Positions 4,387 to 58,004 of a DNA stretch of 64,000 bases are shown here, piece by piece. The stretch's first letter is position 1. The number at the start of each line of letters is the position of its first letter. Under the pieces are notes generated by a model. It had not been told where the DNA came from. It was given only the letters and a program-made list of their open reading frames with translations, and ran no database searches. Origin of the DNA: an uncultured Candidatus Saccharibacteria bacterium (GTDB lineage: Bacteria; Patescibacteriota; Minisyncoccia; Phycocordibacterales; UBA5272); assembly GCA_964443675.1 (NCBI GenBank), contig CAYUDN010000001.1, forward strand, positions 10,862-74,861, in the 5' to 3' direction. A program made the translations under genes and the position numbers.

Positions 4387-5721
4387 TTAGGCTCGTAGTA
4401 TAGCAAGAATTAAAGTTCGTAGTTTTTTAGTAAAAAACATAGAAAAGAACGGAATGGCATATGAGACAAGGCTTGCAAAGGCTGCTCCTTCCATACCGTA
4501 TTTTGGAATCAGAAAGATGTTAAGAGCTACGTTTATTAGCATTCCAAAAAAAAGAGTAAAAGAAATATGTTTTGTGAGGTTCTCAGTGATAAGAATTTGT
4601 TGTGTGAATAGATTTAAAGCTGTACCAATATTACTCCATACATAGATTTTCAAAACACTTACCGCTCCTAGAAATGAAACACCGTAAATAATGAGTGTTA
4701 TATATTTTGCCAAGATAGTTGTTCCTACTGCAACAGCGCCAGAAATAAGTATAAGAAGGATGAGAAGTTTTTTTACTCGTTTAAGGTAGAGTACTTCTGA
4801 GGTGTTTTTTGCATTGACGATTGCAGGGAACAGTCCGGCAACAATTAAATTAGGAATAAAATATGATATCTCTGACATGCGGACCGCTGCATCGTAGAGT
4901 CCAACAGATTGGGTGTCGATCATATTTTTAATCATAATTTGATCGATTCTTGCGTAAATCATAAAAAAAGCAGAAGCAAACATAAGAGGAAATGAATCTT
5001 TGAATAAGTTTTTGGCAATGTCAGCATTAAAACGAAGCTGAGAAAGGGGGCCATACAGAGTGATATGTATGTAGATGTACATTATTGAATAGAGCACTGG
5101 TTCTAGTAAGATAATTGAAGCAAGGTAGATAACACCTTTGTCAAAAAAGATAACAATAATTTTTAATGCATTTAAAAGGAGGGTAATAAGTATTGAAAAT
5201 ATGGAAGGGAGTTTTGACTTTAAGTCGGCCTGAAGTTCATAACTTATAAGTGTAAAAGTGCTTACCACTGGAGATAGTCCTACTATTAAAATAAGATATA
5301 AGGAAACATCTTTTGGAGAAAAAAGAAAAGCAATCAAAGAGCACGCAGTAAAAGAAACGACAGATGCAAGGAACTTTAAAGTGAGCGCACTCCCTAAGTA
5401 TTCATTTCTTTTCTCTGGGTGTTTTACTAGTTCTCTACAAAGAATTTGCTCAATTCCTAAATTTGCAAAAAAAGAAATAACTCCAACAAAACTGATTGCA
5501 TAACTTAACTCCCCATAGTTTTTCGGCCCAAGATTTCTTGCTGTGTACGCAGTTGCTACCAGTGCAATAATCATGGTAGAAATTCTTGCAAAAAACATCC
5601 AGCCTATATTTGAGGCGTATCTTTGAAAACCTTTATTGTGAAGCTTGTTTACAAAAAGACGAAAAATGTCAGAAAAAGAAACCCAGGAGTCTTGTTTTTC
5701 TTTATGTTGCTCATTATTCAT
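4387..5721 (-). CDS. wzx: Wzx-type polysaccharide flippase (multi-pass membrane protein)
   Basis: About 12 predicted TM helices and a polysaccharide-biosynthesis (MOP) family look. The ORF track start at 5781 is upstream of a more plausible ATG (MNNEQHKEK...) at 5721. Confidence 0.65.
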   Translation of the reverse strand: MNNEQHKEKQDSWVSFSDIFRLFVNKLHNKGFQRYASNIGWMFFARISTMIIALVATAYTARNLGPKNYGELSYAISFVGVISFFANLGIEQILCRELVKHPEKRNEYLGSALTLKFLASVVSFTACSLIAFLFSPKDVSLYLILIVGLSPVVSTFTLISYELQADLKSKLPSIFSILITLLLNALKIIVIFFDKGVIYLASIILLEPVLYSIMYIYIHITLYGPLSQLRFNADIAKNLFKDSFPLMFASAFFMIYARIDQIMIKNMIDTQSVGLYDAAVRMSEISYFIPNLIVAGLFPAIVNAKNTSEVLYLKRVKKLLILLILISGAVAVGTTILAKYITLIIYGVSFLGAVSVLKIYVWSNIGTALNLFTQQILITENLTKHISFTLFFGMLINVALNIFLIPKYGMEGAAFASLVSYAIPFFSMFFTKKLRTLILAILRA

Positions 5722-5791
5722 TGTCTTATAGTAGCATTGTTTTTTGCTATAGACTACTTTTCTTTCTTGGCTATGGTACACTTTAGTACAT

Positions 5792-6729: not shown

Positions 6730-7626
6730 TTACTTTTTTTCCTCACCAGCTAACATTTTTTTGAGTGCTTTTTTGATAGTTGTTTTTGGTTTCCATCCGG
6801 GTACAAGAGAATCTTTGTTCCAAGGCTTCATTATTTCTTTATTTCGATAAGGTCTTCCACCCCACACAATAGGAAGCGATTTCTTTGTTACTGATTCATA
6901 GAGTTTTGCAAGTTCTTGCAGTGTCATTCGTTCCCCTGAGCTTACCAGATATGATTTTCCGTTATAAAGATAACCTTTTTTGGTGGTGAGAAGTTTTGCC
7001 ATGTGGATGTATGCATCTACAACATTCCCAACGTAGTTCATATCAAGTATCTGTTTTCCAGGAGACATAGGGAATGGTTCTTTTGTGTTACCGATAGAGG
7101 ACCAGAGATTAAAAATTTTTGGGCGGGTATCTCCTTCACCAAAAGTGTCGAAGAGTTTAAGAGTGACTAGTATAATATCAGATGATTCTCGGTAATAGGT
7201 TGCTATATCTTCAAAGGCTTGTTTTGTTGCAGAGTAAAGGTTGAAAGGGGAATAACGCTTATTGTTACAATGTTGTGTAAAAGTTCCAGTATTGATAAAC
7301 CACTTTGTCTTACTCTTTGTGGTTGCTTCAAGGAGTGTACTTGCAAATAATATATTGGACTGAATAAGAGGTTCTACATCTGTTTCTTTATGTGAAACAA
7401 GAAAAAGAGAGGCGAGGTGTATCACCCCGTCAAATTTTTCTGTATTCATAAACGTTATAAGAGAGCTAACCGAGGTGTACACATGCACTTTTTTTAGGGG
7501 AACAGGAAATTCTTTTTCTAGGGACGTTTCTCGAACAATGATATGTACAGCATTACCCTCTTCAACCAACTTCTTCACGAGATGTTTTCCTATAAAACCA
7601 GTAGCTCCACTAATAAGAATTTTCAT
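6730..7626 (-). CDS. CDP-3,6-dideoxyhexose synthase-like SDR reductase (RfbJ/RfbS family)
   Basis: 'MKILISGATGFIGKHLVKKL' Rossmann motif, 'IHLAS', and a YxxxK-containing core. Its length and blocks resemble the Salmonella RfbJ/RfbS reductases. Confidence 0.55.
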   Translation of the reverse strand: MKILISGATGFIGKHLVKKLVEEGNAVHIIVRETSLEKEFPVPLKKVHVYTSVSSLITFMNTEKFDGVIHLASLFLVSHKETDVEPLIQSNILFASTLLEATTKSKTKWFINTGTFTQHCNNKRYSPFNLYSATKQAFEDIATYYRESSDIILVTLKLFDTFGEGDTRPKIFNLWSSIGNTKEPFPMSPGKQILDMNYVGNVVDAYIHMAKLLTTKKGYLYNGKSYLVSSGERMTLQELAKLYESVTKKSLPIVWGGRPYRNKEIMKPWNKDSLVPGWKPKTTIKKALKKMLAGEEKK

Positions 7627-7632
7627 AGTCGA

Positions 7633-8169
7633 TCAAAAAGGAGAGTTAAACTTTGCAAAAGGAGGCAGAGTGAGGTCTTTTTCTGAAACAATATACTCGT
7701 TAAGTGTGATAGAGAGATCAAAAGAATCGACACGAATACCCGCGTCATGTTCTTTTGAAAACTGTCCTGATTGCAAGTAAAAGGTGCAAGTATTATCTTC
7801 ATGAGTGATAAAGCCGTGCGCGCATCCTTTTGGAATATAGACCATCTTTCCATTGCTTTGACTGAGTTCGACGGTTATATGTTTACCATATGTGGTAGAG
7901 TTTTTTCGTAGATCAAGAATAATGTCAGTAACAGACCCAGAAGAAACACCTATGATTTTGATGTGATCTTTTGGAGGAAGGTGAAAATGCATTCCCCGTA
8001 CTACGTTTTTTTGAGAAACAGAATAAAAACATTCCTCGATGGTAACCCCAAGGTCCATTTTTTCAAAAGCGTCTTTATTAAATGTTTTAACAAAAGTTCC
8101 TCGATGGTCTTTAAAAACAGTTGGTTCTAAAATAAAGACACCCGCTATTTCTGTTTCTGTTTGCTTCAT
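7633..8169 (-). CDS. RmlC-fold (cupin) sugar-nucleotide 3,5/5-epimerase
   Basis: A 178-aa ORF with 'FKDHRGTFVKTF' and 'RGMHFH' blocks, characteristic of dTDP-4-dehydrorhamnose 3,5-epimerase and AscE-type epimerases. Confidence 0.7.
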   Translation of the reverse strand: MKQTETEIAGVFILEPTVFKDHRGTFVKTFNKDAFEKMDLGVTIEECFYSVSQKNVVRGMHFHLPPKDHIKIIGVSSGSVTDIILDLRKNSTTYGKHITVELSQSNGKMVYIPKGCAHGFITHEDNTCTFYLQSGQFSKEHDAGIRVDSFDLSITLNEYIVSEKDLTLPPFAKFNSPF

Positions 8170-9416
8170 TACTTTTTCTTTTTTTCCGATTTTATTTTTT
8201 GTTGTGAAAGAAATTCGTCAAATTTTGATTTAAGATATTCAATCTGCTCATCGTTAAGACCATGGTGACAAGCAACGACAAAGCCATTTTTCATGATCCT
8301 GTCAGTGTTAGGGAAGGCTGTACTGATTTTTCTGTTTTCAATTTTTCTGAACCCTGGTTGCTTAAGAATATTTCCAGCAAAAACTGGCCTTGTTTGAATG
8401 TTGTTGTCTTCAAGGAAGGTGATGATTTCGAGACGGGTAAATGAAGCTTTTGGTTTAATGATAAGAGGGAAGGCAAGCCACGCTGTTTCGGTGTCAGGTG
8501 TTTGTGTTGGAAGGTCAAAGAACTCACTTTTAGTTTTCATAAAAGCAATTAAGGTTTCAAAGTTCTTTTTTCTTTGCTCTAGGAAACCAGGAAGTCTTTT
8601 CATTTGAGCAAGCGCAAAAGCAGAAGAGATTTCGAGGGGAAGGAAGTTATAACCAACTTCACTAAAAATAAATTTGTTATCGTAAGGAATACCTCCAAGT
8701 TTGAAGTTAAAACGATTCTTAAGAAGTTCGGAATTTGCTTTTTCTCCATAAAGAGATGATTGACGTCCCCAACCACGAAGCACTTTGAGACGATTTACCC
8801 ATTTAGGGTCATTAACCATAATCATTCCTCCTCCTCCTGCACCGTTAATTATGTGAGATCCGTAGAAGCTTGTCGTGGTGATATGAGAATAGGTACCTGT
8901 TGGCTTATTGTAGAGCTTGCCTCCAAGAGTGTCACAAGAATCTTCGATAAGGAAAAGCTTGTGTTTTTTTGCAATATCAGCAAGAGCTTTGAGATCAGGA
9001 ATGTTTCCCATAAGAGAAGGGATCATCAAAGCTTTCGTCTTTTTTGTGATTGCTTTTTTAACTTGCTCAATATTTACAATATATGTTGTCGGATCAACGT
9101 CAACAAATACTGGAACAAGTCCTTTCTGAACAATTGGAGCAACCACGGTTGCAAAAGTGAGTGCCGGGGTTATCACCTCAGATCCTTTTGGAAGATTGAG
9201 AAGCTCAAATGCAAGAAGATTTGCTGAAGATCCAGAATTAACCATTGTACCGTATGCCTTACCGAACATTTTTGCAATTTTTGCTTCGAACTCTGTAGTT
9301 TTGTCTCCAAGAGCAGTGTTCCCTTTGAGGACTTCTACCACTGCGTCAATTTCTTCTTGTCCGTGTACAGAGAATCCGTAAGGTACTCGTAATTTTTGTT
9401 CAGTTTTTTTACTCAT
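8169..9416 (-). CDS. DegT/DnrJ/EryC1-family PLP/PMP enzyme, likely CDP-4-keto-6-deoxyglucose 3-dehydrase (RfbH/DdhC, E1-like)
   Basis: The 415-aa ORF is divergent from rfbG-rfbF. It shows the DegT fold blocks 'GSSANLLAFELL' and 'LFLIEDSCDTLG'. Position beside ddhA/ddhB suggests the E1 role rather than an aminotransferase. Confidence 0.65.
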   Translation of the reverse strand: MSKKTEQKLRVPYGFSVHGQEEIDAVVEVLKGNTALGDKTTEFEAKIAKMFGKAYGTMVNSGSSANLLAFELLNLPKGSEVITPALTFATVVAPIVQKGLVPVFVDVDPTTYIVNIEQVKKAITKKTKALMIPSLMGNIPDLKALADIAKKHKLFLIEDSCDTLGGKLYNKPTGTYSHITTTSFYGSHIINGAGGGGMIMVNDPKWVNRLKVLRGWGRQSSLYGEKANSELLKNRFNFKLGGIPYDNKFIFSEVGYNFLPLEISSAFALAQMKRLPGFLEQRKKNFETLIAFMKTKSEFFDLPTQTPDTETAWLAFPLIIKPKASFTRLEIITFLEDNNIQTRPVFAGNILKQPGFRKIENRKISTAFPNTDRIMKNGFVVACHHGLNDEQIEYLKSKFDEFLSQQKIKSEKKKK

Positions 9417-9593
9417 AAAATATATTAAAGTTTAGTGTGACACTACTATTTATAATGTTCTAGTATCCATGATAACAAAGTTTTACGAAAAAGTAACTAG
9501 TTTTGACATTATCACAAATGAGTTGTATTTTGTTGAATTGTTTGCAGTCGTGTCAGTTCTTTATTATAATCGAAAAATAGTTTCCCTTTATTT

Positions 9594-10670
9594 ATGTCCC
9601 TCCACTCGTTTTATAAAAATAAAAAAGTTCTTATCACTGGACATACTGGGTTTAAGGGTTCTTGGTTTACAGAAATCCTCCTCCTTATGGGGGCGCACGT
9701 GTCTGGTATTTCTCTTGTGCCCACATCAACACCTAACCTTTTCACTCTTTTGGGGTTGGAAAAAAGATGTTCAAGTTATATTGCCGATATCCGCAACAGA
9801 GAGGAAATGCTTCGTATTATTAGTAAAGAAAAACCCGAAATCATTTTTCATCTTGCTGCACAACCTATTGTAAGAACAAGTTACGATGATCCTTTGGGTA
9901 CAATTTCGACAAATGTTAACGGTACGGCGAATATTCTTGATGTTGTTCGTGAGGTTGGATTTGTTAAGTCAGTAGTAATTATTACTACCGATAAAGTGTA
10001 CGAAAATAAAGAGTGGCATTATGCGTATCGTGAGAACGATCCTCTTGGTGGGCATGATCCATATAGTTCAAGTAAAGCAGCGGCAGATATTATTTCTTAT
10101 TCGTATATTCAATCTTTTTTCAATCCTGAGAATTTCGAAAAAACACATAACACTCTCGTTGCTATTGCCCGAGCAGGTAATGTTATCGGAGGAGGTGACT
10201 GGTCTGAGTACCGACTTATTCCTGATGTAATTCGTGCTACTTACCATCATGGGAAACATGTAGAAATACGTAACCCTGATTCAGTGAGACCGTGGCAGCA
10301 TGTTCTTGAACCTATTTCTGGATATTTAATGTTAGGAAAAGAATTGTATGAGAAAAAAACACTTGTATCTGGTGCATGGAATTTCGGTCCACACAATGAT
10401 AGCTTTGTAAGTGTGAGAGCTCTTGCAGAGGGTGCGCAGGAGATTCTTGGCAAGGGAGGGTTTATTATTACTCCAGATACCTCTAAACATGAAGCAAACC
10501 TTCTTAAACTCGATATTAATAAAGCCATTGCTCTTCTTGGATGGAAGCCGGTGCTTTCTTTTAAAGAAACGCTTGAGCTTACTTTTTTGTGGTATAAAGA
10601 GTATTATGAGAGTAAAGGGGATATGGTTGCCTTTACAAACAGACAAATTAAACATTTTTTTAAAATATAA
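9594..10670 (+). CDS. rfbG: CDP-glucose 4,6-dehydratase
   Basis: 'KVLITGHTGFKGSWFTEILLLMGAHV' is the hallmark N-terminus of RfbG/DdhB. The length is 358 aa. Confidence 0.8.
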   Translation: MSLHSFYKNKKVLITGHTGFKGSWFTEILLLMGAHVSGISLVPTSTPNLFTLLGLEKRCSSYIADIRNREEMLRIISKEKPEIIFHLAAQPIVRTSYDDPLGTISTNVNGTANILDVVREVGFVKSVVIITTDKVYENKEWHYAYRENDPLGGHDPYSSSKAAADIISYSYIQSFFNPENFEKTHNTLVAIARAGNVIGGGDWSEYRLIPDVIRATYHHGKHVEIRNPDSVRPWQHVLEPISGYLMLGKELYEKKTLVSGAWNFGPHNDSFVSVRALAEGAQEILGKGGFIITPDTSKHEANLLKLDINKAIALLGWKPVLSFKETLELTFLWYKEYYESKGDMVAFTNRQIKHFFKI

Positions 10671-10673
10671 CGT

Positions 10674-11459
10674 ATGAAGGTAGTTATTTTGGCGGGTGGT
10701 TTTGGGACAAGGATAAGTGAGGAAACTGTGGTTAAACCAAAACCAATGGTTGAAATTGGTGGTAAACCAATTCTTTGGCATATCATGAAGATCTACTCAC
10801 ATTACGGATTTAATGATTTTGTGATTTGTCTTGGGTATAAGAGTCATTATGTGAAAGAGTGGTTTAGTGATTATTTTCTACACTCAAGTGACTTTACTGT
10901 TGACTTATCTAAGAACACTATTACTCACCATCGTAACGGTGCAGAGAAATGGAAGGTAACCCTTGTTGATACTGGTGATACTACAATGACTGGTGGACGC
11001 ATCAAAAGAATTAAGAAGTACATCGGTAATAAACCTTTTATGGCTACGTATGGTGATGGTGTTGCAGATATTGATGTTAAAAAACTTGTTGACTTTCATA
11101 AGAAACATAAGAAGATTGCAACGGTTACTTCTGTCTATCCGGAAGGAAGGTTCGGTACTATTTTTATTGATGAAAAGTCTTCAGTAACTGCATTTGGTGA
11201 GAAAAAAGATAATAAAAACAGAGTCAATGGTGGTTTTTTTGTATTTCAACCAGAAGTATTTGATTACATCGAAGGAGATGATACTGTTTTTGAAAAATAC
11301 CCACTTGAAACATTGGCGAAAGAAGGGCAGCTAAAAGCGTACCATCATGACGGTTTTTGGAAACCAATGGATACACTTAATGATAAAAATAAATTAGAGG
11401 AAATGTGGCACAATGATGCTCCGTGGGGTGTTTGGCTTCATTCTGCCAAGAAACGATAG
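10674..11459 (+). CDS. rfbF: Glucose-1-phosphate cytidylyltransferase
   Basis: 'MKVVILAGGFGTRISEETVVKPKPMVEIGGKPILWHIMK' is the classic RfbF/DdhA sequence. The length is 261 aa. Confidence 0.85.
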   Translation: MKVVILAGGFGTRISEETVVKPKPMVEIGGKPILWHIMKIYSHYGFNDFVICLGYKSHYVKEWFSDYFLHSSDFTVDLSKNTITHHRNGAEKWKVTLVDTGDTTMTGGRIKRIKKYIGNKPFMATYGDGVADIDVKKLVDFHKKHKKIATVTSVYPEGRFGTIFIDEKSSVTAFGEKKDNKNRVNGGFFVFQPEVFDYIEGDDTVFEKYPLETLAKEGQLKAYHHDGFWKPMDTLNDKNKLEEMWHNDAPWGVWLHSAKKR

Positions 11460-11463
11460 GTAT

Positions 11464-13251
11464 ATGAAAAAAAACAGTCAACTTCCCACTAAACGGTGTG
11501 CAAGTATTGTGGCTAGTTTTTTAGCAGAAAAAAAAGTTACTCATGTGTTTGATTTAACAGGAGGAATGATTGCGTACCTAGAAGATGCTATCAGCCTTAC
11601 TAAAGGAATCGAATGTCTTCCAATGCATCACGAACAAGCATCTGGGTTTGCTGCGGAGGGGTATGCTAGAAAAAATCAAAACTTTGGTGTTGCTATTGCT
11701 ACCAGTGGTCCAGGGGCAACAAATATGATTACTTCAATCGGGAGCTGTTTTTTTGATTCAGTGCCAACACTCTTTATTACTGGACAGGTGAATACAGAAA
11801 GTATTAAAAAGAATAACAAGGTGAGGCAGGAAGGTTTTCAGGAGACGGATATCGTTTCGATGGTCTCAGGTATTACTAAGTATGCAACGCTTGTGCGGCG
11901 TGCAGAAGATATTCTTTATGAGCTTGAAAAAGCTTGTTTTTTGATGAAAGAAGGGAGACCTGGTCCTGTTCTCCTCGACATTCCTATTGATGTGCAAAGA
12001 ACAGAAGTTTGTATTGCTTCTTGTCGTCATTTTATAGGATCAAAAGAATACCATCGTCTTGTTAAGAAGAGTGATGCGTATAAGAACGTTGCTACAAAAA
12101 AAGTAAAAGCTTTTGAGAAGATGCTCAGCTCTTCCCGTGCACCGCTTATTGTTCTTGGTAACGGTGCTCGTATTTCAGACGCAGGTAAAAAGATTCTCTC
12201 GTTTGCTTCTCGTAACCATATCCCTATCGTTTCTTCTCTTATGGGGTTAGATGTTATTGCTCATGATGAGCTTTTTGTTGGATACATTGGATCAAACGGT
12301 AACCGTGAAGCAAATATTACTTTTGCAAACGCTGATCTGATTATTGCTCTTGGGACACGACTTGATGTACGTCAAATCGGTACCCCAAAATACTTTACTA
12401 CACGAGCAAAGCTTGTGCATGTTGACATTGATAAGAGCTCTATTAACTATATGGTGCCCGCCACACTTGCTTTTGAGAACGATATTAGTGCATTTTTATC
12501 TGCAGTTCTTCATTGTAAAAATTCTAAAAAAGAAACCTGGTTTAGTTTTATTACTTCAGTGAAGCAGTCATTTAAGCGAGAGTTTGTATATGATGGACCC
12601 TTTGTTGATCCGAATACCTTTTTTGACGAACTCTCTTCTTGTTCCAAAGAGAAAACAACCGTTGTTGTTGATGTTGGGCAGAATCAGATGTGGTGCGCTC
12701 AGTCATGGAAGGTAAAAGAAGGCCAAAGACTTCTTTTTTCCGGTGGAATGGGCGCGATGGGTTTTTCTCTTCCTGCCTCTGTTGGCGCATGGTGTGCAGA
12801 CACAAAGGCGCCTCTTGTGGTGATTACAGGGGATGGAGGACTTCAGATTAATATTCAAGAACTGGAAACAGTATCCAGAAATCAGATTCCACTTAAACTA
12901 TTTGTTATCAACAACAAGTCGCTTGGAATGGTACGCGAGTTTCAAGACCTGTATTTTAATAAAAACTACCAGTCCACTGTTCGTGGGTATGGTTGTCCTG
13001 ATCTTAAAAAAGTTGCAGAAGCATATAATTTTCATTATGAAAAAGTTTCTTCTGTTGCAAAAAATGATTTACATTTGAAAAAGATTATGGAAATGACGGT
13101 GCCGGTGCTTATCGAGGTTGATGTTGATATGCATGCACCGCTTCAGCCAAAGATTGTGTATGGTCATGCGCTTGATGATCAGGCTCCATATCTTGATACT
13201 ACACAAAAAGAATTTCTGGAAAATCTTAAGAAGCAACTTCATGAGTCGTAA
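11464..13251 (+). CDS. Thiamine-pyrophosphate-dependent enzyme (acetolactate-synthase-like), YerE-like
   Basis: Three-domain TPP enzyme architecture with a 'GDGGLQINIQELETV' TPP-binding motif. It sits directly after rfbF. The ATG at 11464 follows rfbF's stop; the ORF-track start at 11413 overlaps rfbF. Confidence 0.7.
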   Translation: MKKNSQLPTKRCASIVASFLAEKKVTHVFDLTGGMIAYLEDAISLTKGIECLPMHHEQASGFAAEGYARKNQNFGVAIATSGPGATNMITSIGSCFFDSVPTLFITGQVNTESIKKNNKVRQEGFQETDIVSMVSGITKYATLVRRAEDILYELEKACFLMKEGRPGPVLLDIPIDVQRTEVCIASCRHFIGSKEYHRLVKKSDAYKNVATKKVKAFEKMLSSSRAPLIVLGNGARISDAGKKILSFASRNHIPIVSSLMGLDVIAHDELFVGYIGSNGNREANITFANADLIIALGTRLDVRQIGTPKYFTTRAKLVHVDIDKSSINYMVPATLAFENDISAFLSAVLHCKNSKKETWFSFITSVKQSFKREFVYDGPFVDPNTFFDELSSCSKEKTTVVVDVGQNQMWCAQSWKVKEGQRLLFSGGMGAMGFSLPASVGAWCADTKAPLVVITGDGGLQINIQELETVSRNQIPLKLFVINNKSLGMVREFQDLYFNKNYQSTVRGYGCPDLKKVAEAYNFHYEKVSSVAKNDLHLKKIMEMTVPVLIEVDVDMHAPLQPKIVYGHALDDQAPYLDTTQKEFLENLKKQLHES

Positions 13252-13254
13252 GGT

Positions 13255-14190
13255 ATGAAAAAAGTCGCACTGCTCGGTGTTACAGGGTATATCGGAAAAT
13301 CCCTACTGAATGAATTCTGTGCACATCCGAAAAAGTATTCACTTTTTCTTTTTTCACGTTCAGTAGACGGTATAGCTAAGCACTTGCAAGGTGTTGATCT
13401 TTCGAAAATTCAGTACGCTATGTGTTCGCTTGATGACTTTGATATATATGAATATGACGTAGTTATCAACTGTACTGGTATAGGTGACCCTGGTCAGTTA
13501 CAAAAGAATCCAAGTGCAATTTTCTCTGTAACTGAGAGTGTGGACGAGATGGTGATTAGTTACCTTATGAAGCATAAAAAGTGTCTCTACCTTGCCATGA
13601 GTAGTGGTGCTGTGTATGGTAACGCTTTTACAAAACCAGTTACCAGTGCAACAAAAGTTGTACTTCCTTCTGTTGCGACTACACCGCATGACTTTTATAC
13701 AATTTCTAAAATACACACAGAAGCAAAACATCGTGCATTGAAGGATCTTAATATTGTCGATTTACGAGTTTTTGCGTTTTTTAGCAGATTCGTTGATGGT
13801 AAGGCTGGTTTTTTCATGTCACAAGTTGTTGATTGTTTGCAAAAGAAGAAAGTTTTTAAAACAAGCACTCATGATATGGTTCGAGACTATTGTGTACCGT
13901 CTGATTTGTTTGCACTAGTACAAATGGTTATGAAGAAAAAGAAAGTTAACAATTCTTTTGATGTGTATAGTAAACGGTCAATAACAAAGAAGAAGTTATT
14001 AGCATTCTTAAAAAAGCATTACGGCCTACGTTATGAATATACAAGCGAGCAGGTAATTGGAAAACGTGCCACTGAAAAGAATGCGTATTGTTCTCTTGAT
14101 AAAAAAGCGGAAGAAATCGGGTATACACCAAAATTCACCTCGCTAGAGGGAATTTCGAGTGAGCTCAGCCTATTTTTTAAGCCTAAGTAG
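13255..14190 (+). CDS. NAD(P)-dependent epimerase/reductase (SDR), paralog of the 1315-2295 gene
   Basis: 'MKKVALLGVTGYIGKSLL'. It is collinear with the minus-strand paralog at 1315-2295 and is a YerF-like reductase candidate. Confidence 0.65.
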   Translation: MKKVALLGVTGYIGKSLLNEFCAHPKKYSLFLFSRSVDGIAKHLQGVDLSKIQYAMCSLDDFDIYEYDVVINCTGIGDPGQLQKNPSAIFSVTESVDEMVISYLMKHKKCLYLAMSSGAVYGNAFTKPVTSATKVVLPSVATTPHDFYTISKIHTEAKHRALKDLNIVDLRVFAFFSRFVDGKAGFFMSQVVDCLQKKKVFKTSTHDMVRDYCVPSDLFALVQMVMKKKKVNNSFDVYSKRSITKKKLLAFLKKHYGLRYEYTSEQVIGKRATEKNAYCSLDKKAEEIGYTPKFTSLEGISSELSLFFKPK

Positions 14191-15043
14191 TCTCTTTTTT
14201 GAAGTATCTAGCAGAGTCTGCTTTCATTGCATTAACAATTTCTTTAATGCCGTCTTCTAGCGTTGTGGTTGCTTTCCAGTAGGTATGAATAAATGGGTCT
14301 GGTTCATTTCTTTTATCTTTTTGAACATCATCTTTTGAACTTGCTGGCACAACTGTTGAGCCAGGGAAGTGTGAAGCAATAATCGAAGCAACGTTAAGAA
14401 TGTTAGTCCACTCAAAGTTAGTAATATGCAGCTCTTTGTCACGTGGAATTTCGTTATATTTTTCTGCAAGTGTTAGCAGTGCTTCACAGCAATCATCTGC
14501 ATACAAGAACTGACGCTCTTCTTCACCATTTGTAAGGAGATCAATGGTGCCTGTATCATGAGCCTTAATGATAAGGTCGGTGATTACGTGAGATTTATCG
14601 AGGTCGTGCTCTATACCGTATACGTTCCAAAATTTAACAACAAGCCCGCCAAGAATAGAGGTGTACGATTCGCCAACAGATTTTAGTCGACCGTAGCTAG
14701 AGTATGTCATGTTCGCCATTTGGCTCGATGCAAAAAGAAATGGTTTTTTGGTGGTGTGAAGTACATCAAACGTGTGTGTCATAAGCTTCATATTGTTGCT
14801 TATGAAATCAGGGGTTTGCTGATAAAGTTTTAGGTAACGAGAACCTCCGACATCAAATGCAAGGAAAAATACGAAATCAGCTTCTTTGATATAACGTTCA
14901 AGAAGAGGATTTTTGTAGATTCGAAGATCTTGTTCATCGCTGTTAACGATATCAAATTCCAAAACAGTATGACCTGCTTTTTTTAAAAAACTGGTCAACG
15001 CGGCACCAATTTGCCCTTCAGAACCCAAAACAAGGTATTTCAT
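14183..15043 (-). CDS. NAD-dependent epimerase/dehydratase family protein
   Basis: 'MKYLVLGSEGQIGAALTSFLKKAGHTV' Rossmann motif. The 286-aa ORF is convergent with, and overlaps by 8 nt, the stop of the previous gene. Confidence 0.6.
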   Translation of the reverse strand: MKYLVLGSEGQIGAALTSFLKKAGHTVLEFDIVNSDEQDLRIYKNPLLERYIKEADFVFFLAFDVGGSRYLKLYQQTPDFISNNMKLMTHTFDVLHTTKKPFLFASSQMANMTYSSYGRLKSVGESYTSILGGLVVKFWNVYGIEHDLDKSHVITDLIIKAHDTGTIDLLTNGEEERQFLYADDCCEALLTLAEKYNEIPRDKELHITNFEWTNILNVASIIASHFPGSTVVPASSKDDVQKDKRNEPDPFIHTYWKATTTLEDGIKEIVNAMKADSARYFKKETT

Positions 15044-15246
15044 GTAAAAGTAAAGTTAATGAATATATAAGTAAATGTACAGTACTTTTAATTCTTTGTA
15101 AATGTATTTCACTTAGTAAGATTATAGACACAATGGTTTATATATAAGTCAATATTTTCAAGTCTTTTTTATAATGATAGAGTAAGTTTAGGTTCCTTAT
15201 AGAGACTATATGTCTTATAAGGTTGTTTGTTTTTTTGGGGCAAAAT

Positions 15247-16251
15247 ATGAAGACTGCGCTTGTGCTTGGTGCTGGTGGCTTCATCGGTCATCACATGGTT
15301 AATCAACTGAAGTCGGAAGGGTTCTGGGTCCGCGGTGTTGACATCAAGGATCCAGAATTCGAGCCGACGAAGGCTGATGATTTTCAGATCTTCGACCTTC
15401 GTAACTACTATGGTCTGAATCAGATCATGACGACTCCGCAAGGGGATGTGTTTGATCAGATCTACCAATTTGCTGCCGACATGGGCGGTGCTGGGTATGT
15501 GTTTTCAGGTCATCATGATTACGACATCATGCATAACTCTGGGCAAATCAACCTGAATGTGTCCCGTGTTCAGCTTGCGCTTAATCAGGTTCACAAGACA
15601 AACAAGACTGTTATCTTTTACAGTAGCAGTGCTTGCATGTATCCTGAGTACAACCAACTGGATCCGGATAATCCGAATTGCAGCGAAGACTCAGCATACC
15701 CTGCTAACCCTGATAGCGAGTACGGTTGGGAGAAGCTCTTCAGTGAGCGGATGTATCTCTCTCTTCTGCGTTGCTATGGGGTTCAGGTCCGTATTGCTCG
15801 TTTCCACAACATCTTCGGACCTCTTGGTACCTGGGAAGGTGGCAAGGAAAAGGCTCCAGCTGCCTTCTGTCGCAAGCTTGCGATGGCAAATAACGGTGAC
15901 ACGATTGAAGTGTGGGGAGATGGAATGCAAACGCGTTCTTTCCTCTACATTGATGAGTGCATCAAGGCGGTAAGGCTTTTGGTTGAATCTGACTTCGTTG
16001 GTCCGGTGAATATCGGTTCTGACGAAATGGTTTCGATCAACCAGCTTATCGATATGGTTTCCAAGATCTCCGGTAAGGATGTTGGAAGGAATCACATCCC
16101 TGGTCCTCTTGGTGTTCGTGGTCGCAATTCTGATAACAGGCTGTATCAAGAAAAGATCGGATGGTCTGTCTCTCAACCGCTTGAAGTTGGCCTTCGAGAG
16201 ACCTATAAGTGGATTGCCGAGCAGGTTGCCATGAAGCACTCGACAAAGTGA
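15247..16251 (+). CDS. GDP-mannose 3,5-epimerase-like NAD-dependent epimerase
   Basis: Long blocks almost identical to plant and bacterial GME: 'SSSACMYPE', 'RIARFHNI(F/Y)GP(L/F)GTW.GG.EKAPAAFCRK', 'WGDG.QTRSF..IDEC', 'NIGSDEMVS', 'HIPGP.GVRGRNSDN'. The start is moved to ATG 15247 (MKTALVLGAGGFIGHH). Visibly G+C-rich relative to its neighbours. Confidence 0.75.
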   Translation: MKTALVLGAGGFIGHHMVNQLKSEGFWVRGVDIKDPEFEPTKADDFQIFDLRNYYGLNQIMTTPQGDVFDQIYQFAADMGGAGYVFSGHHDYDIMHNSGQINLNVSRVQLALNQVHKTNKTVIFYSSSACMYPEYNQLDPDNPNCSEDSAYPANPDSEYGWEKLFSERMYLSLLRCYGVQVRIARFHNIFGPLGTWEGGKEKAPAAFCRKLAMANNGDTIEVWGDGMQTRSFLYIDECIKAVRLLVESDFVGPVNIGSDEMVSINQLIDMVSKISGKDVGRNHIPGPLGVRGRNSDNRLYQEKIGWSVSQPLEVGLRETYKWIAEQVAMKHSTK

Positions 16252-16361: not shown

Positions 16362-17096
16362 CTATTCAAACGTGAGTCTTCCAAGTTTTCGGAATGCTAC
16401 GTATGTCGATGCGCGTGCGCAATCCTCGAGACCGAAGTCTGGATTGTCATCAAAGAGCGAATTATCTTCAAGAAGCTTGAGCCATTCATTGCATGGAAAG
16501 AGTACTACAGCAAGATGTTCGGTGCTGTCGAATTTTGCAACACCTCGCTTTGTATACGGTTTTACTTTTCCAAGAAATGCAAAGCAACGCGCTTCACTGT
16601 TGCGCACAGAATGAAACGTGCCATTTTTTGAAGAAAGAGGGGTAACACTTTCGAGTTCAAGCCCTGTTTCTTCATGCCATTCACGTATCGCTGTTGCTTC
16701 CATTTTTTCTGCAAGTGTTGGTAAGTGTGACTCTTCACGACCTGCAACACCACAGACTGGAACAATGGCAATATGATTGTTGCCGTGCTTCCATTCTGCT
16801 GTTACAGCAACATATTTGTCATCGATAAGTGCAATAACAAGAGCGTATGGCTTGAATTCAACACGGAACGCATCGAATACAGAATCATCGAATGGGTTCC
16901 TGTGCTCAATTGCAAACGACTTCGGTGCAAATTTTCGATATGCCGCAAGTTGCCCCTCTTTGGCATTTTTGAGAAAATCTTCAATCGGCACTTGTTCGCT
17001 AATCTTTGGCCATAATTGTATCCCTGTATCACGAATCACTTGGAAACAGTTTTTGGCGGTCACAATCGGCCACCCAAGAACTGGGTGTTTGTTCAT
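16362..17096 (-). CDS. NUDIX hydrolase (possible nucleotide-sugar hydrolase)
   Basis: Nudix box 'REWHEETGLE' within GX5EX7REUXEEXGU. An AAGGA SD sits 7 nt upstream of the ATG at 17096. It is adjacent to the GME-like gene, so GDP-mannose hydrolase is a candidate role. Confidence 0.7.
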   Translation of the reverse strand: MNKHPVLGWPIVTAKNCFQVIRDTGIQLWPKISEQVPIEDFLKNAKEGQLAAYRKFAPKSFAIEHRNPFDDSVFDAFRVEFKPYALVIALIDDKYVAVTAEWKHGNNHIAIVPVCGVAGREESHLPTLAEKMEATAIREWHEETGLELESVTPLSSKNGTFHSVRNSEARCFAFLGKVKPYTKRGVAKFDSTEHLAVVLFPCNEWLKLLEDNSLFDDNPDFGLEDCARASTYVAFRKLGRLTFE

Positions 17097-17235
17097 GTAT
17101 ATTCCTTTACTGGTTTTGTTACAAGTTTAAAGATCTTTTGTAATTATGCCACCATGCTACAGAAATGTCAACACTCTTTTCAGTAGTTCTGCACCATGTT
17201 CGCAAAACGTACTATGCTGTACTATAATTATATAT

Positions 17236-17736
17236 ATGATTATTCAATATAACGATTTACAAAGTATCCGAAAGCAGTTTGAGGATAAAAAAATAGTTTT
17301 CTGTTCAGGAAGTTTTGACCTGCTTCACGCAGGACATGTTCTTTTTTTTGAGGATTGTAAAAAGTATGGTGATGTTCTTGTTGTTGCTATAGGTGATGAT
17401 ACAATCTTGCGAATTAAGGGGCCTGATAGACCAATTCAAAATCAACATATTAGAATAAAAATGGTTGATTCAATAAAAGCAGTTGATTATTGTTTTATCC
17501 ATAAAAATGTCGAAGGTCCATTTCTTAACACCTTTATGGATGAAGTGCTTAGCTTACTTAAGCCTGATGTGTGGGTAGTTAATGGAGATGCCTCTGAGAT
17601 TCCGTATCGAGAGGAGTTGGCAAAAAAACACGCAACCACATTTCATATTCTTGATAGAGAATGTCCACCTGAGTTTGAAGGTATTTCCACTTCAAGTATT
17701 ATTAAAAAGATCCGAAGTGGTATCACAGTTATGTAA
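17236..17736 (+). CDS. Cytidylyltransferase-like nucleotidyltransferase (TagD / RfaE domain II family)
   Basis: 'FCSGSFDLLHAGHVLFFEDCKKYGDVLVVAIGDD' gives the HxGH nucleotidyltransferase motif with TagD-like spacing. The start is placed at an internal ATG (MIIQYN...); the track's longer N-terminus lies in an AT-rich promoter-like region. Confidence 0.6.
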   Translation: MIIQYNDLQSIRKQFEDKKIVFCSGSFDLLHAGHVLFFEDCKKYGDVLVVAIGDDTILRIKGPDRPIQNQHIRIKMVDSIKAVDYCFIHKNVEGPFLNTFMDEVLSLLKPDVWVVNGDASEIPYREELAKKHATTFHILDRECPPEFEGISTSSIIKKIRSGITVM

Positions 17737-23878: not shown

Positions 23879-24391
23879 CTAGTTGGTACGTGGCTTGTGA
23901 AGGCCTTCATACTGCAGACGAGGAAAAGGATACCGGCCAACAGACTTGGTTGCAACCCTGATGACTTGCTCGAAATTGCCGTCGGCAACCTGGGCTTCGT
24001 CGTAGAGCACTGTCGGGCCGAGCATTTCGATGAAGTCACCAAGGCGGACAACCAGTCTGTATTCGGCAGGCTTGCGCCAGAACCAGAAACCACGACCTTT
24101 GGCGGGATTGCGCCAGAACAGCAGTACTGCGCCCTCACCGATCTGGAAGCCATCCACACGCTCGTGCTCGCTAGAGCCGTCGTTGAACTGCTTTCGCACT
24201 TCCGTTTCGGTCAAGGTTCGCACCTGTTCCAAAGAGGCGAACTCATGACGAACTGTCAGGCCGGTAGCGTGACGAATCTCGATACCTTCCTCGTTGATGG
24301 TGATCTGAATCTCACCCATTGCAATTTTGGATTCATCTGTCGGTGAAAGACCTGTGAAGGTTCCAAAGTAACGCTGAATGCCGTGTTCCAT
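23879..24391 (-). CDS. Hypothetical protein (170 aa) on G+C-rich foreign-looking DNA
   Basis: The ATG at 24391 is preceded by a GGAG SD about 8 nt upstream. Codon third positions are strongly G/C-biased, unlike most genes in the window. It contains the tandem motif 'FWRNPAKGRGFWFWRKPAE'. No family was recognised. Overlapping opposite-strand ORFs (23897-24346, 23719-24159) are judged to be GC-driven artefacts. Confidence 0.5.
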   Translation of the reverse strand: MEHGIQRYFGTFTGLSPTDESKIAMGEIQITINEEGIEIRHATGLTVRHEFASLEQVRTLTETEVRKQFNDGSSEHERVDGFQIGEGAVLLFWRNPAKGRGFWFWRKPAEYRLVVRLGDFIEMLGPTVLYDEAQVADGNFEQVIRVATKSVGRYPFPRLQYEGLHKPRTN

Positions 24392-24460
24392 AGCTGATCT
24401 CCGTGTGTATAAAGAACAAAAGCATTATACAACATATATACTGTATTTGTCAATATATGT

Positions 24461-24481
24461 GGACAGTAGAGGATTCGACGA
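24461..24481 (-). repeat. Exact 20-21 nt copy of the tRNA-Val 3' end (att-like partial tRNA duplication)
   Basis: Plus strand gtggacagtagaggattcga is the reverse complement of TCGAATCCTCTACTGTCCAC, identical to the 3' T-arm and acceptor segment of the tRNA-Val at 24835-24906. No upstream tRNA body is present. Confidence 0.6.
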
Positions 24482-24658
24482 TTGTTAAGGGTTTTCTTTT
24501 TCGTGTTGCACACTCAAACAAAAACTCTTAACTTTCGCCTAAGCTTCGTCGCCACAACTTTTGATTACAAAAGTTGGCTTCGCTTGCGGCTCAGTTCGAA
24601 TCCTCTACATGTCGCACAAAACATAATCACCCGAAGCCTTCGCTTCAGGTTCATTGTT

Positions 24659-24680
24659 TTGTGGACAGTAGAGGTTCGGT
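24659..24680 (-). repeat. Degenerate copy of the tRNA-Val 3' end (att-like scar)
   Basis: Plus strand gtggacagtagaggttcggtcc matches the acceptor 3' strand exactly, but its T-loop is degraded (ACCGAAC in place of TTCGAAT). Confidence 0.4.
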
Positions 24681-24795
24681 CCCAAATCTGCCTCGCTTTG
24701 CCTGCCTAAAGGCAAGGCAGACTCGAAGCAGATTCCTGACCTGTATTCGAATCCTCACGAACATGAAGCAGTTCATGTTCTTACTATCCACGAAC

Positions 24796-24826
24796 AAAAA
24801 CGGCACGGATTACCGTGCTCATTTTT
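24796..24826. terminator. Bidirectional intrinsic terminator downstream of tRNA-Val
   Basis: aaaaa-cggcacgg-atta-ccgtgc-tcattttt: hairpin gcacgg/ccgtgc flanked by an A-run and a T-run. Confidence 0.6.
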
Positions 24827-24834
24827 GTACTCGT

Positions 24835-24906
24835 GGACAGTAGAGGATTCGAACCTCTGACATCTACAACGTCAATGTAGCGCTCTACCAACTGAGCTAA
24901 CCGTCC
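24835..24906 (-). tRNA. tRNA-Val (anticodon GAC)
   Basis: Manual fold of the reverse complement: acceptor GGACGGT/ACTGTCC, D-arm GCTC-AGTTGGTA-GAGC, anticodon stem CTACA/TGTAG with loop TTGACGT (GAC), T-arm AGAGG-TTCGAAT-CCTCT and discriminator A. Confidence 0.85.
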
Positions 24907-25016
24907 CTATGATCTACTAGTATACTATATAACACCAATTTTGAAAAAGTAAAATAATATGGTATTATATCGCGTACCGGTGATACTTTTTATTAAAAGG
25001 GTTTCACTATAAAGAC

Positions 25017-25091
25017 GGCCCCATCGTCTATCGGTTAGGACATCGGCTTTTCATGCCGGTAAGCGGAGTTCGACTCTCCGTAGGGTCACCA
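25017..25091 (+). tRNA. tRNA-Glu (anticodon UUC), CCA encoded
   Basis: Collinear with E. coli tRNA-Glu: acceptor GGCCCCA/TAGGGTC (one C-A mismatch, one G-U), D-stem GTCT/GGAC, anticodon stem TCGGC/GCCGG with loop TTTTCAT (TTC), T-arm CGGAG-TTCGACT-CTCCG and encoded CCA. Confidence 0.75.
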
Positions 25092-25212
25092 ACGAAGATT
25101 TATCTTCACCACATTCGGTTGTTTTTACGTTGTTATAACAACGTAAAAGTAGTTGCAATATTTGCGTCATTTTATCTGTTATTTCTCTGATATAACAGAT
25201 AATGTTAGATAA

Positions 25213-25260
25213 CAAAAAAGACCCCCGCTTCGCATGACAATGTCATTTGATTTGGGGGTC
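25213..25260 (-). terminator. Rho-independent terminator of the SPFH gene
   Basis: gaccccc...gggggtc stem with an internal atgacaatgtcat palindrome, followed on the minus strand by TTTTTTGTT. Confidence 0.6.
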
Positions 25261-25278
25261 TGACCAGCACTGGTCTGG

Positions 25279-26217
25279 TTACTTGAGAGGGACTGTCGCC
25301 GGCACAGCCAGTTCGCCGATGATGGCCGTGCAGTTGGCTTTCGCTCCGCACTTCTCCACCGCTTCGACTTGCTTCTTGGCAACTTCCAGCTTGAGGAACT
25401 GCTCCGGCGTAAAGCCGACGCTGTTGCGGTAGGCGTTGTCCGCATTGGCGCGTTCGGTTTCAGCGCCCTTGCGATTGATTTCCGCTTTCCGGCGCTCGTC
25501 TTCAGTCTTTGCACGCTGTTGTTGCGAAGCAGTTTCAGCGAGAGCTTCGAGAACCTTGCTGGGAGGAGTTGCTTTGCCGACGATGACTTCCATCACTTCG
25601 ACATCGATGCCCTTGGCCTTCACGAACTCGCGCATCTCGGTGAGAACGACACGCTGGATTTCTCCGAGAATGTCTTTCCCTTCCTTGTTGAGCTGGCGGG
25701 TTGTGAGGGCTGTCATCGGCGTCTTGGCCACTTCATCGCGCACCGAGGTACGAAACAGTTCCTTAAGGTTCTGCTTGTACCAGTCAGGGCCGAAAGACGC
25801 ATGCAGTTTCGGGGTCTTGCCGGGGATCGGCCGGACCTTGATGTATGCATTGAAGTCGATCGGGATGTTGTCGACGGTGATCGTGCCATCCTTGACGTCA
25901 TCGAACCCTTCCGTAAACTGGAAAGGGCGCGTGTCGTACATGACGACGTTCGTCGTGTAGAAGAGCCACTTCGAGCCGGTGACATGGGGTTCTTGACGAA
26001 CACCGCCGTCACCGAACATCGTGAAGAACGGCTTGTCGATGAGGACGGCCTCGTGACCGGCCTCGACTTGCACCCGTTGCGTGACCATCACCATGAAGGC
26101 GATGAACAGGACGAACGAGATTGCGCCGATGATGCGCTTCTTGTATTGAGTCCAGAAACTGAACTCGTTTTCATGGCCGTAGCTCATGGGATTTCCTTTC
26201 GTGGGTTGTGTTGTCAA
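25279..26217 (-). CDS. SPFH/band-7 (stomatin/prohibitin-like) membrane protein
   Basis: N-terminal TM helix (IIGAISFVLFIAFMVMV) followed by an SPFH-type domain and an Ala/Glu/Lys-rich coiled-coil tail. An AGGAA SD precedes the ATG at 26217. Strongly G+C-rich codon usage. The three +strand ORFs overlapping it are rejected as antisense artefacts. Confidence 0.75.
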   Translation of the reverse strand: MTTQPTKGNPMSYGHENEFSFWTQYKKRIIGAISFVLFIAFMVMVTQRVQVEAGHEAVLIDKPFFTMFGDGGVRQEPHVTGSKWLFYTTNVVMYDTRPFQFTEGFDDVKDGTITVDNIPIDFNAYIKVRPIPGKTPKLHASFGPDWYKQNLKELFRTSVRDEVAKTPMTALTTRQLNKEGKDILGEIQRVVLTEMREFVKAKGIDVEVMEVIVGKATPPSKVLEALAETASQQQRAKTEDERRKAEINRKGAETERANADNAYRNSVGFTPEQFLKLEVAKKQVEAVEKCGAKANCTAIIGELAVPATVPLK

Positions 26218-26584
26218 AAAAACAGAAAATGTATCAGGAACATATATATCATATTATGATTATTATATTTTGTCAAGGCCGAAATTTTGCTTGATTTTAC
26301 TCACTAATACATAGTTCTATACCAGATACGGTATATAAACTAGAAGAGTTTTTGATGGTTTTTCTATGGAAAGATTGTAAAATATAGATATTATTCATAA
26401 TTAGTTAGTGCTAAAAGTCGATTTGGATACTTATTGAAAACTGTTTTCCATTTTATAATCTCATTTTCAATGGTGTTCCACCCTAGATAGTACTGGCTCA
26501 CCTTCAACAGCTAGCACTAGAAGGGTGCTTAAAGTAGTAAAAACAGTGTCTAAAAAACGCTGTTTTTACTATGCTTTTTTACCT

Positions 26585-26613
26585 TGACTTTTTACTACTT
26601 TCATGCTATTATT
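26585..26613 (+). promoter_or_regulatory. Candidate sigma70 promoter for the 26689 gene (TTGACT-N17-TATTAT)
   Basis: Read from the AT-rich 470-bp spacer between the two G+C-rich genes. A 10-bp hairpin gtaaaaacag...ctgtttttac lies just upstream at 26531-26563. Confidence 0.4.
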
Positions 26614-26688
26614 GTAGGAGTCACAATCTGTGGCAAATTGTTTCGGCAATGTAAACCGAGTTTGAACATTTACAAGGAGAGATAACCC

Positions 26689-27582: not shown

Positions 27583-27638
27583 TCCTTGGATCTTGGGAAC
27601 TTGATTCTTTTGTTCCCTTGATTCTTGAATCCTTGAAC

Positions 27639-27666
27639 GGCTCGCTTGCGAGCCCTTTTTCTTTTG
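27639..27666 (+). terminator. Rho-independent terminator of the 297-aa gene
   Basis: ggctcgc-tt-gcgagcc hairpin followed by CTTTTTCTTTT. Confidence 0.55.
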
Positions 27667-28292
27667 GTCGAAGACCTCCGTATATTTTTTATATTTGATA
27701 TACTTTCCCTTGAGTCTAGGTTAGTGCATAGTAGTTCACGGATTACTATCACCGAACTCTTTCTCTATGAGAAATTGTAATCAGTATCATGGTGATCACG
27801 GTTACTATGACAGTGTTGTTGCTCTAGAGATACTGCTTACTACTTTTCAAGACAAATGAGCAATCATGTTGTCAGATAAAATACAGAATTATGAAGAAGA
27901 ACCTAAAAGGCTTTATGAGGCTTGGCCAGAAAAAGACTAGGCTGCCAATGAACATGAATACCCACACAGCCTTGAGCGGCCAAGGGGTTTCTGTGCTAGA
28001 ATTAGACATCTCACTTACTCTCTATGGTTGAGATTAATAAAATGAACAGAAAGTCTCCTTCTCAATTAGTGCCTGTGTTACTATACAACAAAACTATCAG
28101 TTTATCAAACCAATAAAAGACGAACCCAGTTTTGGGGTGAGATACTTAAAACCTTTTAAAACTCATTAAATTCCATTATCTCCTCCACTAACAATTCTCA
28201 ATTCTTTAGCCTCAGGGTTATATTGGTAGAGAGTTTCTACTCACACTTTACCCACATCTGCTTCTTCTGTATTCCATATATACTCTATCAAT

Positions 28293-32072: not shown

Positions 32073-32074
32073 AT

Positions 32075-56861: not shown

Positions 56862-56870
56862 TGGTTCTCC

Positions 56871-57987: not shown

Positions 57988-58004
57988 AGAGGTTTGGTAC
58001 TGTT

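Follow-up and report, generated by a model that had tools for sequence, protein, structure and literature searches.

A surface-glycan locus of an uncultured Saccharibacteria bacterium with a probable E1-like sugar 3-dehydrase lacking [2Fe-2S] ligands and two predicted CDP-sugar tailoring modules

Among surface sugars the 3,6-dideoxyhexoses and the C4-branched sugars are uncommon and provoke strong immune responses, and the textbook route to them relies on an unusual radical redox pair, the dehydrase E1 and its reductase E3. Here we consider a candidate locus for such sugars at positions 6730-14190 of a 64,000-nucleotide stretch of DNA (the window; contig CAYUDN010000001.1 of assembly GCA_964443675.1) from an uncultured Candidatus Saccharibacteria bacterium, a host within the candidate phyla radiation (CPR). 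Much of the locus resembles the yersiniose A pathway of Yersinia pseudotuberculosis (DdhA, DdhB, DdhC and DdhD with YerE and YerF): both have rfbF/ddhA, rfbG/ddhB, a His-type 3-dehydrase of the pyridoxamine phosphate (PMP) kind, and a YerE-clade carboligase dependent on thiamine diphosphate (ThDP, also TPP) with an adjacent short-chain dehydrogenase/reductase (SDR). The yersiniose A pathway has DdhD and the [2Fe-2S] ligands, whereas here the dehydrase is without these ligands and no DdhD was seen in the DNA covered. Its genes are ordered ddhDABC-yerEF, whereas those of the present locus form two divergent operons in a CPR host that is presumably without lipopolysaccharide, in contrast to Yersinia. 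The tailoring genes come after the core genes, as they do in the Yersinia S modules (PMC5399914; PMC9306805).

Other described systems share different parts of the arrangement. The ascarylose pathway (AscA-F) and the operon on the Sphingomonas hengshuiensis plasmid NZ_CP010837 (E3-rfbF-rfbG-rfbH-rmlC-like-SDR) have the dehydrase, epimerase and SDR in the order found here, but the Sphingomonas and Yersinia dehydrases carry the motif CYCAPGCDNTC and have an adjacent E3, both of which are missing from our locus. ColD, a GDP-4-keto-6-deoxymannose 3-dehydratase, and the heptose C3-dehydratases of Campylobacter jejuni HS:5/HS:11 are like the present enzyme in having His in place of Lys, in having no Fe-S motif and in being followed by an epimerase/reductase. 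A review from 2022 names only E1, SpnQ and ColD as characterised sugar 3-dehydratases; E1 and SpnQ both carry a [2Fe-2S] cluster and depend on a reductase, SpnQ being served by general cellular reductases, while ColD has no cluster and recycles its PMP from glutamate (PMC8987622). According to the same review, SpnQ without a reductase behaves as an aminotransferase, a behaviour that E1 and ColD do not show in those conditions. Glutamate/pyridoxal phosphate (PLP) C3-dehydratases have been demonstrated on GDP-heptoses in C. jejuni (PMC10440746). The locus type is familiar; what merits experiment is the host, a CPR bacterium, and the clade of CDP-linked dehydrases without Fe-S.

We are inclined to believe that three enzymes of the locus lead in turn to CDP-4-keto-3,6-dideoxy-D-glucose, one of them a reductase-free dehydrase, and that this intermediate feeds two tailoring modules. 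The scenario turns on the DegT-family protein at the head of the minus-strand operon. Its best PDB match is E1 (3bcx, 270 bits, E=3e-79), with ColD next (183 bits), and its identity to E1/RfbH is about 37%. His188 within its SFYGSH motif aligns with His220 of E1, which occupies the position of the PLP lysine, a replacement shared by every characterised sugar 3-dehydrase; the corresponding His of ColD is seen as an SH dipeptide in the alignment. The E1 cysteines C251, C253, C257 and C261 align with non-Cys residues, and the protein has two cysteines in all, C161 and C383. The former is the equivalent of E1 C193, a residue conserved in ColD as well, so that only this one position is retained out of the E1 [2Fe-2S] motif C-X57-C-X1-C-X7-C (C193, C251, C253, C261). 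The RfbH model NF011936 gave 370.1 bits, under its cut-off of 423. Because the Cys cluster is absent and the RfbH score falls below the cut-off, we do not regard the protein as a canonical E1/DdhC. The sequence-only reading had proposed, with reservations, an E1 enzyme here: the E1 likeness and the His-for-Lys substitution were borne out, while the C-terminal Cys cluster expected of E1 was not found, and without its ligands the canonical E1/E3 mechanism finds no support. Judged by sequence and context the protein is not a ColD ortholog either, being less similar to ColD than to E1, falling in a different neighbour-joining (NJ) clade, and being linked to the CDP-glucose genes rfbF and rfbG rather than to GDP-mannose genes.

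The missing-ligand pattern is not the oddity of a single sequence, since it recurs in all 120 close homologs (72-94% identity), none of which has a Cys after WGR, and in 84 of 150 representatives of the wider family, which have no Cys in the loop. SFYGSH was found in 108 of the 120 by the pattern used, the other 12 not being parsed. The wider sample consisted of the best 150 representatives at 50% identity from a library of 1.84 billion proteins; the catalytic His is present in 148 of them, and three or more loop cysteines occur in 58, so that among the nearest relatives of the query the Cys-less type outnumbers the textbook Fe-S E1 type by 84 to 58. Every one of the top 28 is Cys-less. In the NJ tree the window protein belongs to a clade that comprises 38 representatives, of which 37 lack loop Cys and none has the Fe-S motif, and all 58 Fe-S types, E1, three RfbH proteins and ColD lie outside it. 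By comparison, the [2Fe-2S] Cys motif was found in all eight control RfbH proteins of the Fe-S type. The closest homologs, together with the syntenic loci L004 and L005, come from metagenome-assembled genomes of Patescibacteria. More broadly, Cys-less E1-like proteins occur in Patescibacteria, marine alphaproteobacteria, rhizobia, Bacteroidota and archaea, and cultured carriers of the same enzyme clade include Roseibium, Labrenzia, Leisingera, Ensifer and Sinorhizobium meliloti CCMM B554, where the annotation pipeline PGAP labels them 'DegT/DnrJ/EryC1/StrS family aminotransferase'. The link to CDP-sugar genes is a general one: of 80 genome loci, 59 have rfbG in the neighbourhood of the gene and 52 have rfbF. 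Seven proteins have the Cys-less domain fused to RmlC-like, RmlD-like or SDR domains (P0121, P0122, P0127, P0131, P0141, P0165 and P0172), the RmlC-like fusions being P0127, P0141 and P0165, the last an RmlC+RmlD+E1-like triple fusion of 868 aa; a ferredoxin/FNR module is fused to the domain in none of the seven.

How, then, might such an enzyme turn over? From the absence of the [2Fe-2S] ligands, and with ColD as the characterised cluster-free precedent, we infer by analogy a ColD-type, glutamate/PLP-driven and E3-independent 3-dehydration of a CDP-sugar, for which the protein probably needs no reductase partner. In general terms, and tentatively, since we would put its chances at a little short of even, the Cys-less, His-bearing E1-like proteins might constitute a third class of nucleotide-sugar 3-dehydrases that carries out C3-deoxygenation on CDP-sugars in the reductase-free manner of ColD. 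The fusions of Cys-less E1-like, RmlC-like and RmlD/SDR domains make a coherent set for a dehydrase acting with an epimerase and a 4-reductase; the set is incoherent for an aminotransferase, because the PLP enzyme would then consume the C4 carbonyl.

The sequence-only reading had noted that no E3 is visible in the window, and this holds. When authentic E3 proteins of Salmonella and S. hengshuiensis served as tblastn queries, neither the window nor any of 82 related loci gave a match at E<=1e-3, and the best match in the 7 kb to the left of the window had E=1.2; a Fer2/FNR motif scan, which picks up both of these control proteins, likewise gave no such open reading frame (ORF) in the sequences searched. 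No ddhD homolog is therefore seen within the approximately 71 kb made up of the window and the 7 kb to its left. In our reading E3 is probably dispensable here rather than encoded elsewhere, and the case for E3-independence rests on the missing Cys ligands, since the control for E3 absence undercut the argument from absence itself. In that control, six of the eight Fe-S-type rfbH loci on plasmids likewise lack a nearby E3, which makes its absence uninformative, and we rejected it as proof of E3-independence. For four further Fe-S-type representatives (P0184, P0241, P0149 and P0200) the contigs were 1.6-4.7 kb long and told nothing about gene neighbourhoods.

Several considerations speak against the scenario we favour. 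E3 lies within 7-10 kb in just two of those eight Fe-S-type control loci. No biochemistry was found for any member of the Cys-less clade, and turnover of a CDP-sugar in the manner of ColD is proposed by analogy. Since SpnQ without its reductase aminates, amination is in principle conceivable also for a His enzyme incapable of being reduced. Both NJ trees rest on plain distances, and the E1-like one carries no bootstrap values. The YerF role given below to the 311-aa SDR (SDR311) is a probable one, assigned by position only, and the RmlC-like enzyme needs a 4-keto substrate, which bears on its order of action relative to the YerE-like enzyme and on the number of end products.

Let us suppose, as the alternative that survives best, that the protein is a 3-dehydrase still reliant on an external reductant, such as an unlinked ferredoxin or flavodoxin or an SDR partner, with no cluster on the dehydrase being required. 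Six of the eight Fe-S-type control loci also lack a nearby E3; SpnQ draws on general cellular reductases (PMC8987622), the Cys-less domains are often fused to SDR domains, and the window holds a thioredoxin-reductase-like gene at 45164-46072. Yet in E1 and SpnQ the electrons enter through the enzyme's own [2Fe-2S] cluster, the ligands of which are absent here, ColD is proof that cluster-free turnover needs no reductant, and the fused SDRs are most simply read as downstream 4-reductases. We consider this alternative unlikely. An ordinary aminotransferase was rejected because His188 replaces the PLP lysine. It might still be argued that the DegT protein makes a CDP-4-amino-4,6-dideoxyhexose, leaving the YerE-like enzyme to branch the undeoxygenated CDP-4-keto-6-deoxyglucose. 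The DegT fold, the PGAP name on the members from cultured organisms, the RfbH model score below cut-off and the amination by reductase-deprived SpnQ (PMC8987622) are all compatible with this. Against it stand the His in the query and in nearly all family representatives, the failure of E1 and ColD to aminate under the conditions in which SpnQ does, and the fused 3,5-epimerase and 4-reductase, which would compete with amination for the C4 carbonyl. Moreover, ColD itself required two mutations for its conversion into an aminotransferase. We regard this route as slightly less likely again than reliance on an external reductant. ColD-type, glutamate-driven dehydration thus remains our preferred reading of the DegT protein.

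The ThDP enzyme encoded directly after rfbF has as its best PDB match 5ahk (407 bits, E=1e-120, 37.7% identity), which was deposited as 'acetolactate synthase II' and which we take to be PpYerE from Pseudomonas protegens; the best true acetohydroxyacid synthase (AHAS) scored 285 bits. In the NJ tree it groups with 5ahk and the enzymes of L004, L005 and L072 in 99 of 100 bootstrap replicates, apart from an ilvB clade (100/100) formed by four outgroup genes that have ilvN or ACT-domain neighbours; these had come from a plasmid search for YerE-like genes, which returned only true ilvB genes. The ThDP motif GDG-X24-NN is intact and the HEQ motif with the catalytic Glu is present. Of the described YerE-like lyases (PpYerE, ErwE, JanthE, MMAR_2332), PpYerE shares its clade. 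The ErwE cluster differs in having an aldolase gene, none being seen among the genes scanned in our locus. As constituents of deoxysugar clusters, YerE-like enzymes are well established and have been predicted widely (PMC9306805; PMC12247030), with donor specificities in the family ranging from C2 to C8 (PMC12247030). We therefore assign the protein as a YerE-like ThDP-dependent carboligase with a predicted ketosugar acceptor, which agrees with the sequence-only reading. That it is instead a genuine acetolactate synthase for branched-chain amino acids, merely adjoining the sugar genes, is very improbable and was rejected, for although its best NCBIfam matches are AHAS models and it is 31-35% identical to true ilvB, its score on the AHAS equivalog model (441 bits, cut-off 538) and on every curated AHAS model is below cut-off, it keeps apart from the ilvB genes in the tree, no ilvN, ilvC or ilvE occurs in the window, its gene is 3-4 nt from rfbF on one side and from SDR311 on the other, and the order rfbF-TPP-SDR is kept in L004, L005 and L011.

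The RmlC-fold protein scores 182 bits on Pfam dTDP_sugar_isom and 141.9 bits on TIGR01221 rmlC, below the cut-off of 155.75. It is 39% identical (148 bits) to the rmlC-like gene product after rfbH in S. hengshuiensis and gives 102 bits with Salmonella RfbC; it is probably a CDP-4-keto-3,6-dideoxyhexose 5-epimerase like AscE. The 298-aa SDR of the same operon (SDR298) has intact GxxGxxG and YSATK motifs and is closer to the SDR encoded after rfbH and the rmlC-like gene in S. hengshuiensis, the position of AscF (38% identity, 212 bits), than to the Salmonella CDP-abequose synthase RfbJ (27% identity, 95 bits, E=5e-23). It is probably the 4-reductase of the epimerised branch, AscF/RfbJ-like, and its likeness to RfbJ had been anticipated from the sequence. 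SDR311 has GxxGxxG and YTISK motifs and weak PDB matches; in L004, L005 and L011 it always directly follows the YerE-like gene, and L007, where YerE is missing, does not have it. Its role would be that of YerF, reducing the ketone of the branch. The sequence-only reading had counted three reductases in the locus. Two SDRs other than the dehydratase do lie inside it, but the third overlaps its end by 8 nt; this third SDR matches the C-terminus of GDP-L-fucose synthase weakly, has an 80% identical ortholog in L004 and none in L005, and possibly belongs to the neighbouring GDP-sugar genes. Among PDB searches of the four nearby SDRs a specific identity was obtained for the fourth alone, and because this is a GDP-mannose 3,5-epimerase homolog we do not count it as a reductase of the CDP pathway. 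Fucosyltransferase-family glycosyltransferase (GT) genes, GT10 and GT11, lie just left of the window (L096 4041-5108, 6104-6916). Taken with GT10/GT11, the epimerase homolog points to a glycan that also contains a sugar of the L-galactose/L-gulose or fucose type.

Among related Patescibacteria loci two separable modules are found on a shared core of the E1-like gene, rfbG and rfbF. L004 (84% identity) has the core with the YerE-like/SDR311 module only, L007 (74%) has an E1-like-rfbF-rfbG-RmlC-like-SDR298 operon from which YerE is absent, and L005, L011 and the window have both modules. In L005, L007 and L011 SDR298 and the RmlC-like gene are found together. Further related loci have, where the YerE-like gene would stand, a transketolase split into N and C subunits (L002 5323-7022, L013, L014, L015, L019, L024, L059, L099 11274-13027 and L102 11226-13024). 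The split genes adjoin Cys-less E1-like genes in CPR bacteria and Fe-S-type rfbH in Methylovirgula and Desulfobaculum, and may be another ThDP-based way of making branched (hydroxyacetyl) 3,6-dideoxy sugars. The Roseibium algicola plasmid NZ_CP019631 (L097 6017-11614) has rfbF-rfbG, a Cys-less E1-like gene, a 415-aa class I S-adenosylmethionine methyltransferase gene and an oxidoreductase gene, an order that hints at a C-methyl-branched CDP-deoxysugar.

Our model may then be put as follows. RfbF would produce CDP-glucose and RfbG would convert it to CDP-4-keto-6-deoxyglucose, from which the E1-like enzyme would remove the 3-OH by way of a PMP ketimine, His188 serving as the base. The product would be released by hydrolysis and PMP reloaded from L-glutamate, without E3/DdhD, as ColD does on GDP-sugars. 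In one module the RmlC-like epimerase and SDR298 would then lead to an ascarylose-type 3,6-dideoxy-L-hexose; in the other the YerE-like enzyme would add an acyl branch at C4, most likely acetyl from pyruvate, and SDR311 would reduce the branch to give a yersiniose-type sugar. The GT2s, the Wzx flippase and the Wzy_C protein would perhaps build these sugars into a glycan on the envelope of the CPR cell. That one shared intermediate feeds the ascarylose-type and the yersiniose-type branches is the most economical reading, while a serial route with epimerisation before branching is also conceivable.

If this scenario is true, a large Fe-S-free E1-like clade is wired to CDP-glucose genes and offers a simpler, two-cofactor (PLP/glutamate) CDP route. 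The annotation and prediction of such loci would change, in that many genomes labelled 'DegT aminotransferase' would make 3,6-dideoxy or branched sugars without DdhD, and CDP-4-keto-3,6-dideoxyglucose, which YerE-type carboligases use as their acceptor, would become accessible to biocatalysis without a reductase. The envelope of a minimal-genome CPR bacterium, possibly its pili or S-layer by way of the Wzy_C protein, would bear yersiniose- or ascarylose-like sugars. These are among the few concrete, testable predictions on the envelope glycan chemistry of uncultured Patescibacteria, and the cultured carriers (Roseibium, Leisingera, Ensifer, Sinorhizobium meliloti CCMM B554) make testing practical.

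Coordinates of the CDP-sugar genes and of the neighbouring glycan genes in the window
Feature	Position	Strand	Evidence and remarks
Wzx-type flippase	4387-5781	minus	Pfam Polysacc_synt, 109 bits; syntenic in L004, L005, L011
SDR298, 298-aa extended SDR	6730-7626	minus	Pfam Epimerase
RmlC-fold protein	7633-8169	minus	base 8169 shared with end of upstream ORF
DegT-family protein	8169-9416	minus	Pfam DegT, 269 bits
Divergent intergenic region between the two operons	9417-9593		AT-rich, 177 bp
rfbG/ddhB, CDP-glucose 4,6-dehydratase	9594-10670	plus	TIGR02622, 464.3 bits (cut-off 278.45)
rfbF/ddhA, glucose-1-phosphate cytidylyltransferase	10674-11459	plus	TIGR02623, 394.8 bits (cut-off 300.25)
YerE-like ThDP (TPP) enzyme	11464-13251	plus	three TPP_enzyme domains; alternative ATG at 11413
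SDR311, 311-aa SDR in YerF position	13255-14190	plus	Pfam Epimerase, 54.7 bits
Third SDR	14183-15043	minus	Pfam Epimerase, 77 bits; 8-nt overlap with end of SDR311 gene
Fourth SDR, GDP-mannose 3,5-epimerase homolog	15223-16251	plus	PDB 2c59, E=8e-90
Wzy_C-domain membrane protein, 738 aa	19354-21570	plus	Pfam Wzy_C, 65 bits; closes glycan locus

The genes named in the sequence-only reading (RfbF, RfbG, the DegT protein, the TPP enzyme after rfbF, the RmlC-fold protein and the SDRs) are all present where it placed them. They form two divergent operons, with DegT, RmlC-fold and SDR298 genes on the minus strand and rfbG, rfbF, the TPP gene and SDR311 on the plus strand, and the junctions within the cluster are 3-6 nt or overlapping. 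Consensus matches of the promoter kind in the gap between them include two best ones for the plus strand (9503-9531 and 9541-9570) and two for the minus strand (9556-9527 and 9536-9508). RfbF and RfbG both score above their curated NCBIfam equivalog cut-offs, and we assign them as a predicted cytidylyltransferase and dehydratase at the level of the family. By Pfam scan the surrounding glycan locus spans at least 295-21570, with an FkbM methyltransferase, GT2s, Wzx and the Wzy_C protein, and it extends at least 7 kb further to the left of the window with GT-D, GT10 and GT11 glycosyltransferases and an acyltransferase. The proposed setting of a CDP-hexose 3-deoxy/branched-sugar pathway inside a surface-glycan locus is thereby upheld.

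Judged by its domain, the Wzy_C protein may be of the polymerase, ligase or O-oligosaccharyltransferase type, and a similar protein adjoins the related locus L002. Wzy_C domains are also found in O-oligosaccharyltransferases. PilB/PilC-type pilus genes lie at 30387-33496 on the plus strand, 9 kb from the Wzy_C gene, and glycosylation of pilin or an S-layer through the Wzy_C protein is conceivable. Between the fourth SDR and the Wzy_C gene, a NUDIX protein (16362-17096, minus) and a nucleotidyltransferase resembling RfaE domain II (17146-17736, plus; 86 bits, below cut-off) form a divergent pair that is kept in L004 (52% and 70% identity) and may provide a further nucleotide-sugar activation step.

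Elsewhere the window carries FtsZ/FtsA, HisRS and type IV pilus genes. Its GyrA shows 86-91% identity to proteins assigned by their sources to Candidatus Parcubacteria or Pacebacteria, and we speak of the host as a Parcubacteria-type CPR bacterium. Its GC content rises to 0.47-0.50 at 24001-28000 and 56001-58000, against about 0.38-0.42 elsewhere. The segment at 24-28 kb has long ORFs that overlap on both strands and are without a Pfam match (25369-26259, 26569-27297 and 26689-27582), beside tRNA-Val and tRNA-Glu, the only kind of RNA that Rfam reports being tRNA. A 504-aa protein encoded at 38675-40189 on the minus strand begins with an HTH_3 domain, to which a domain of the EPSP_synthase family (MurA/AroA type) is joined, an unusual combination.

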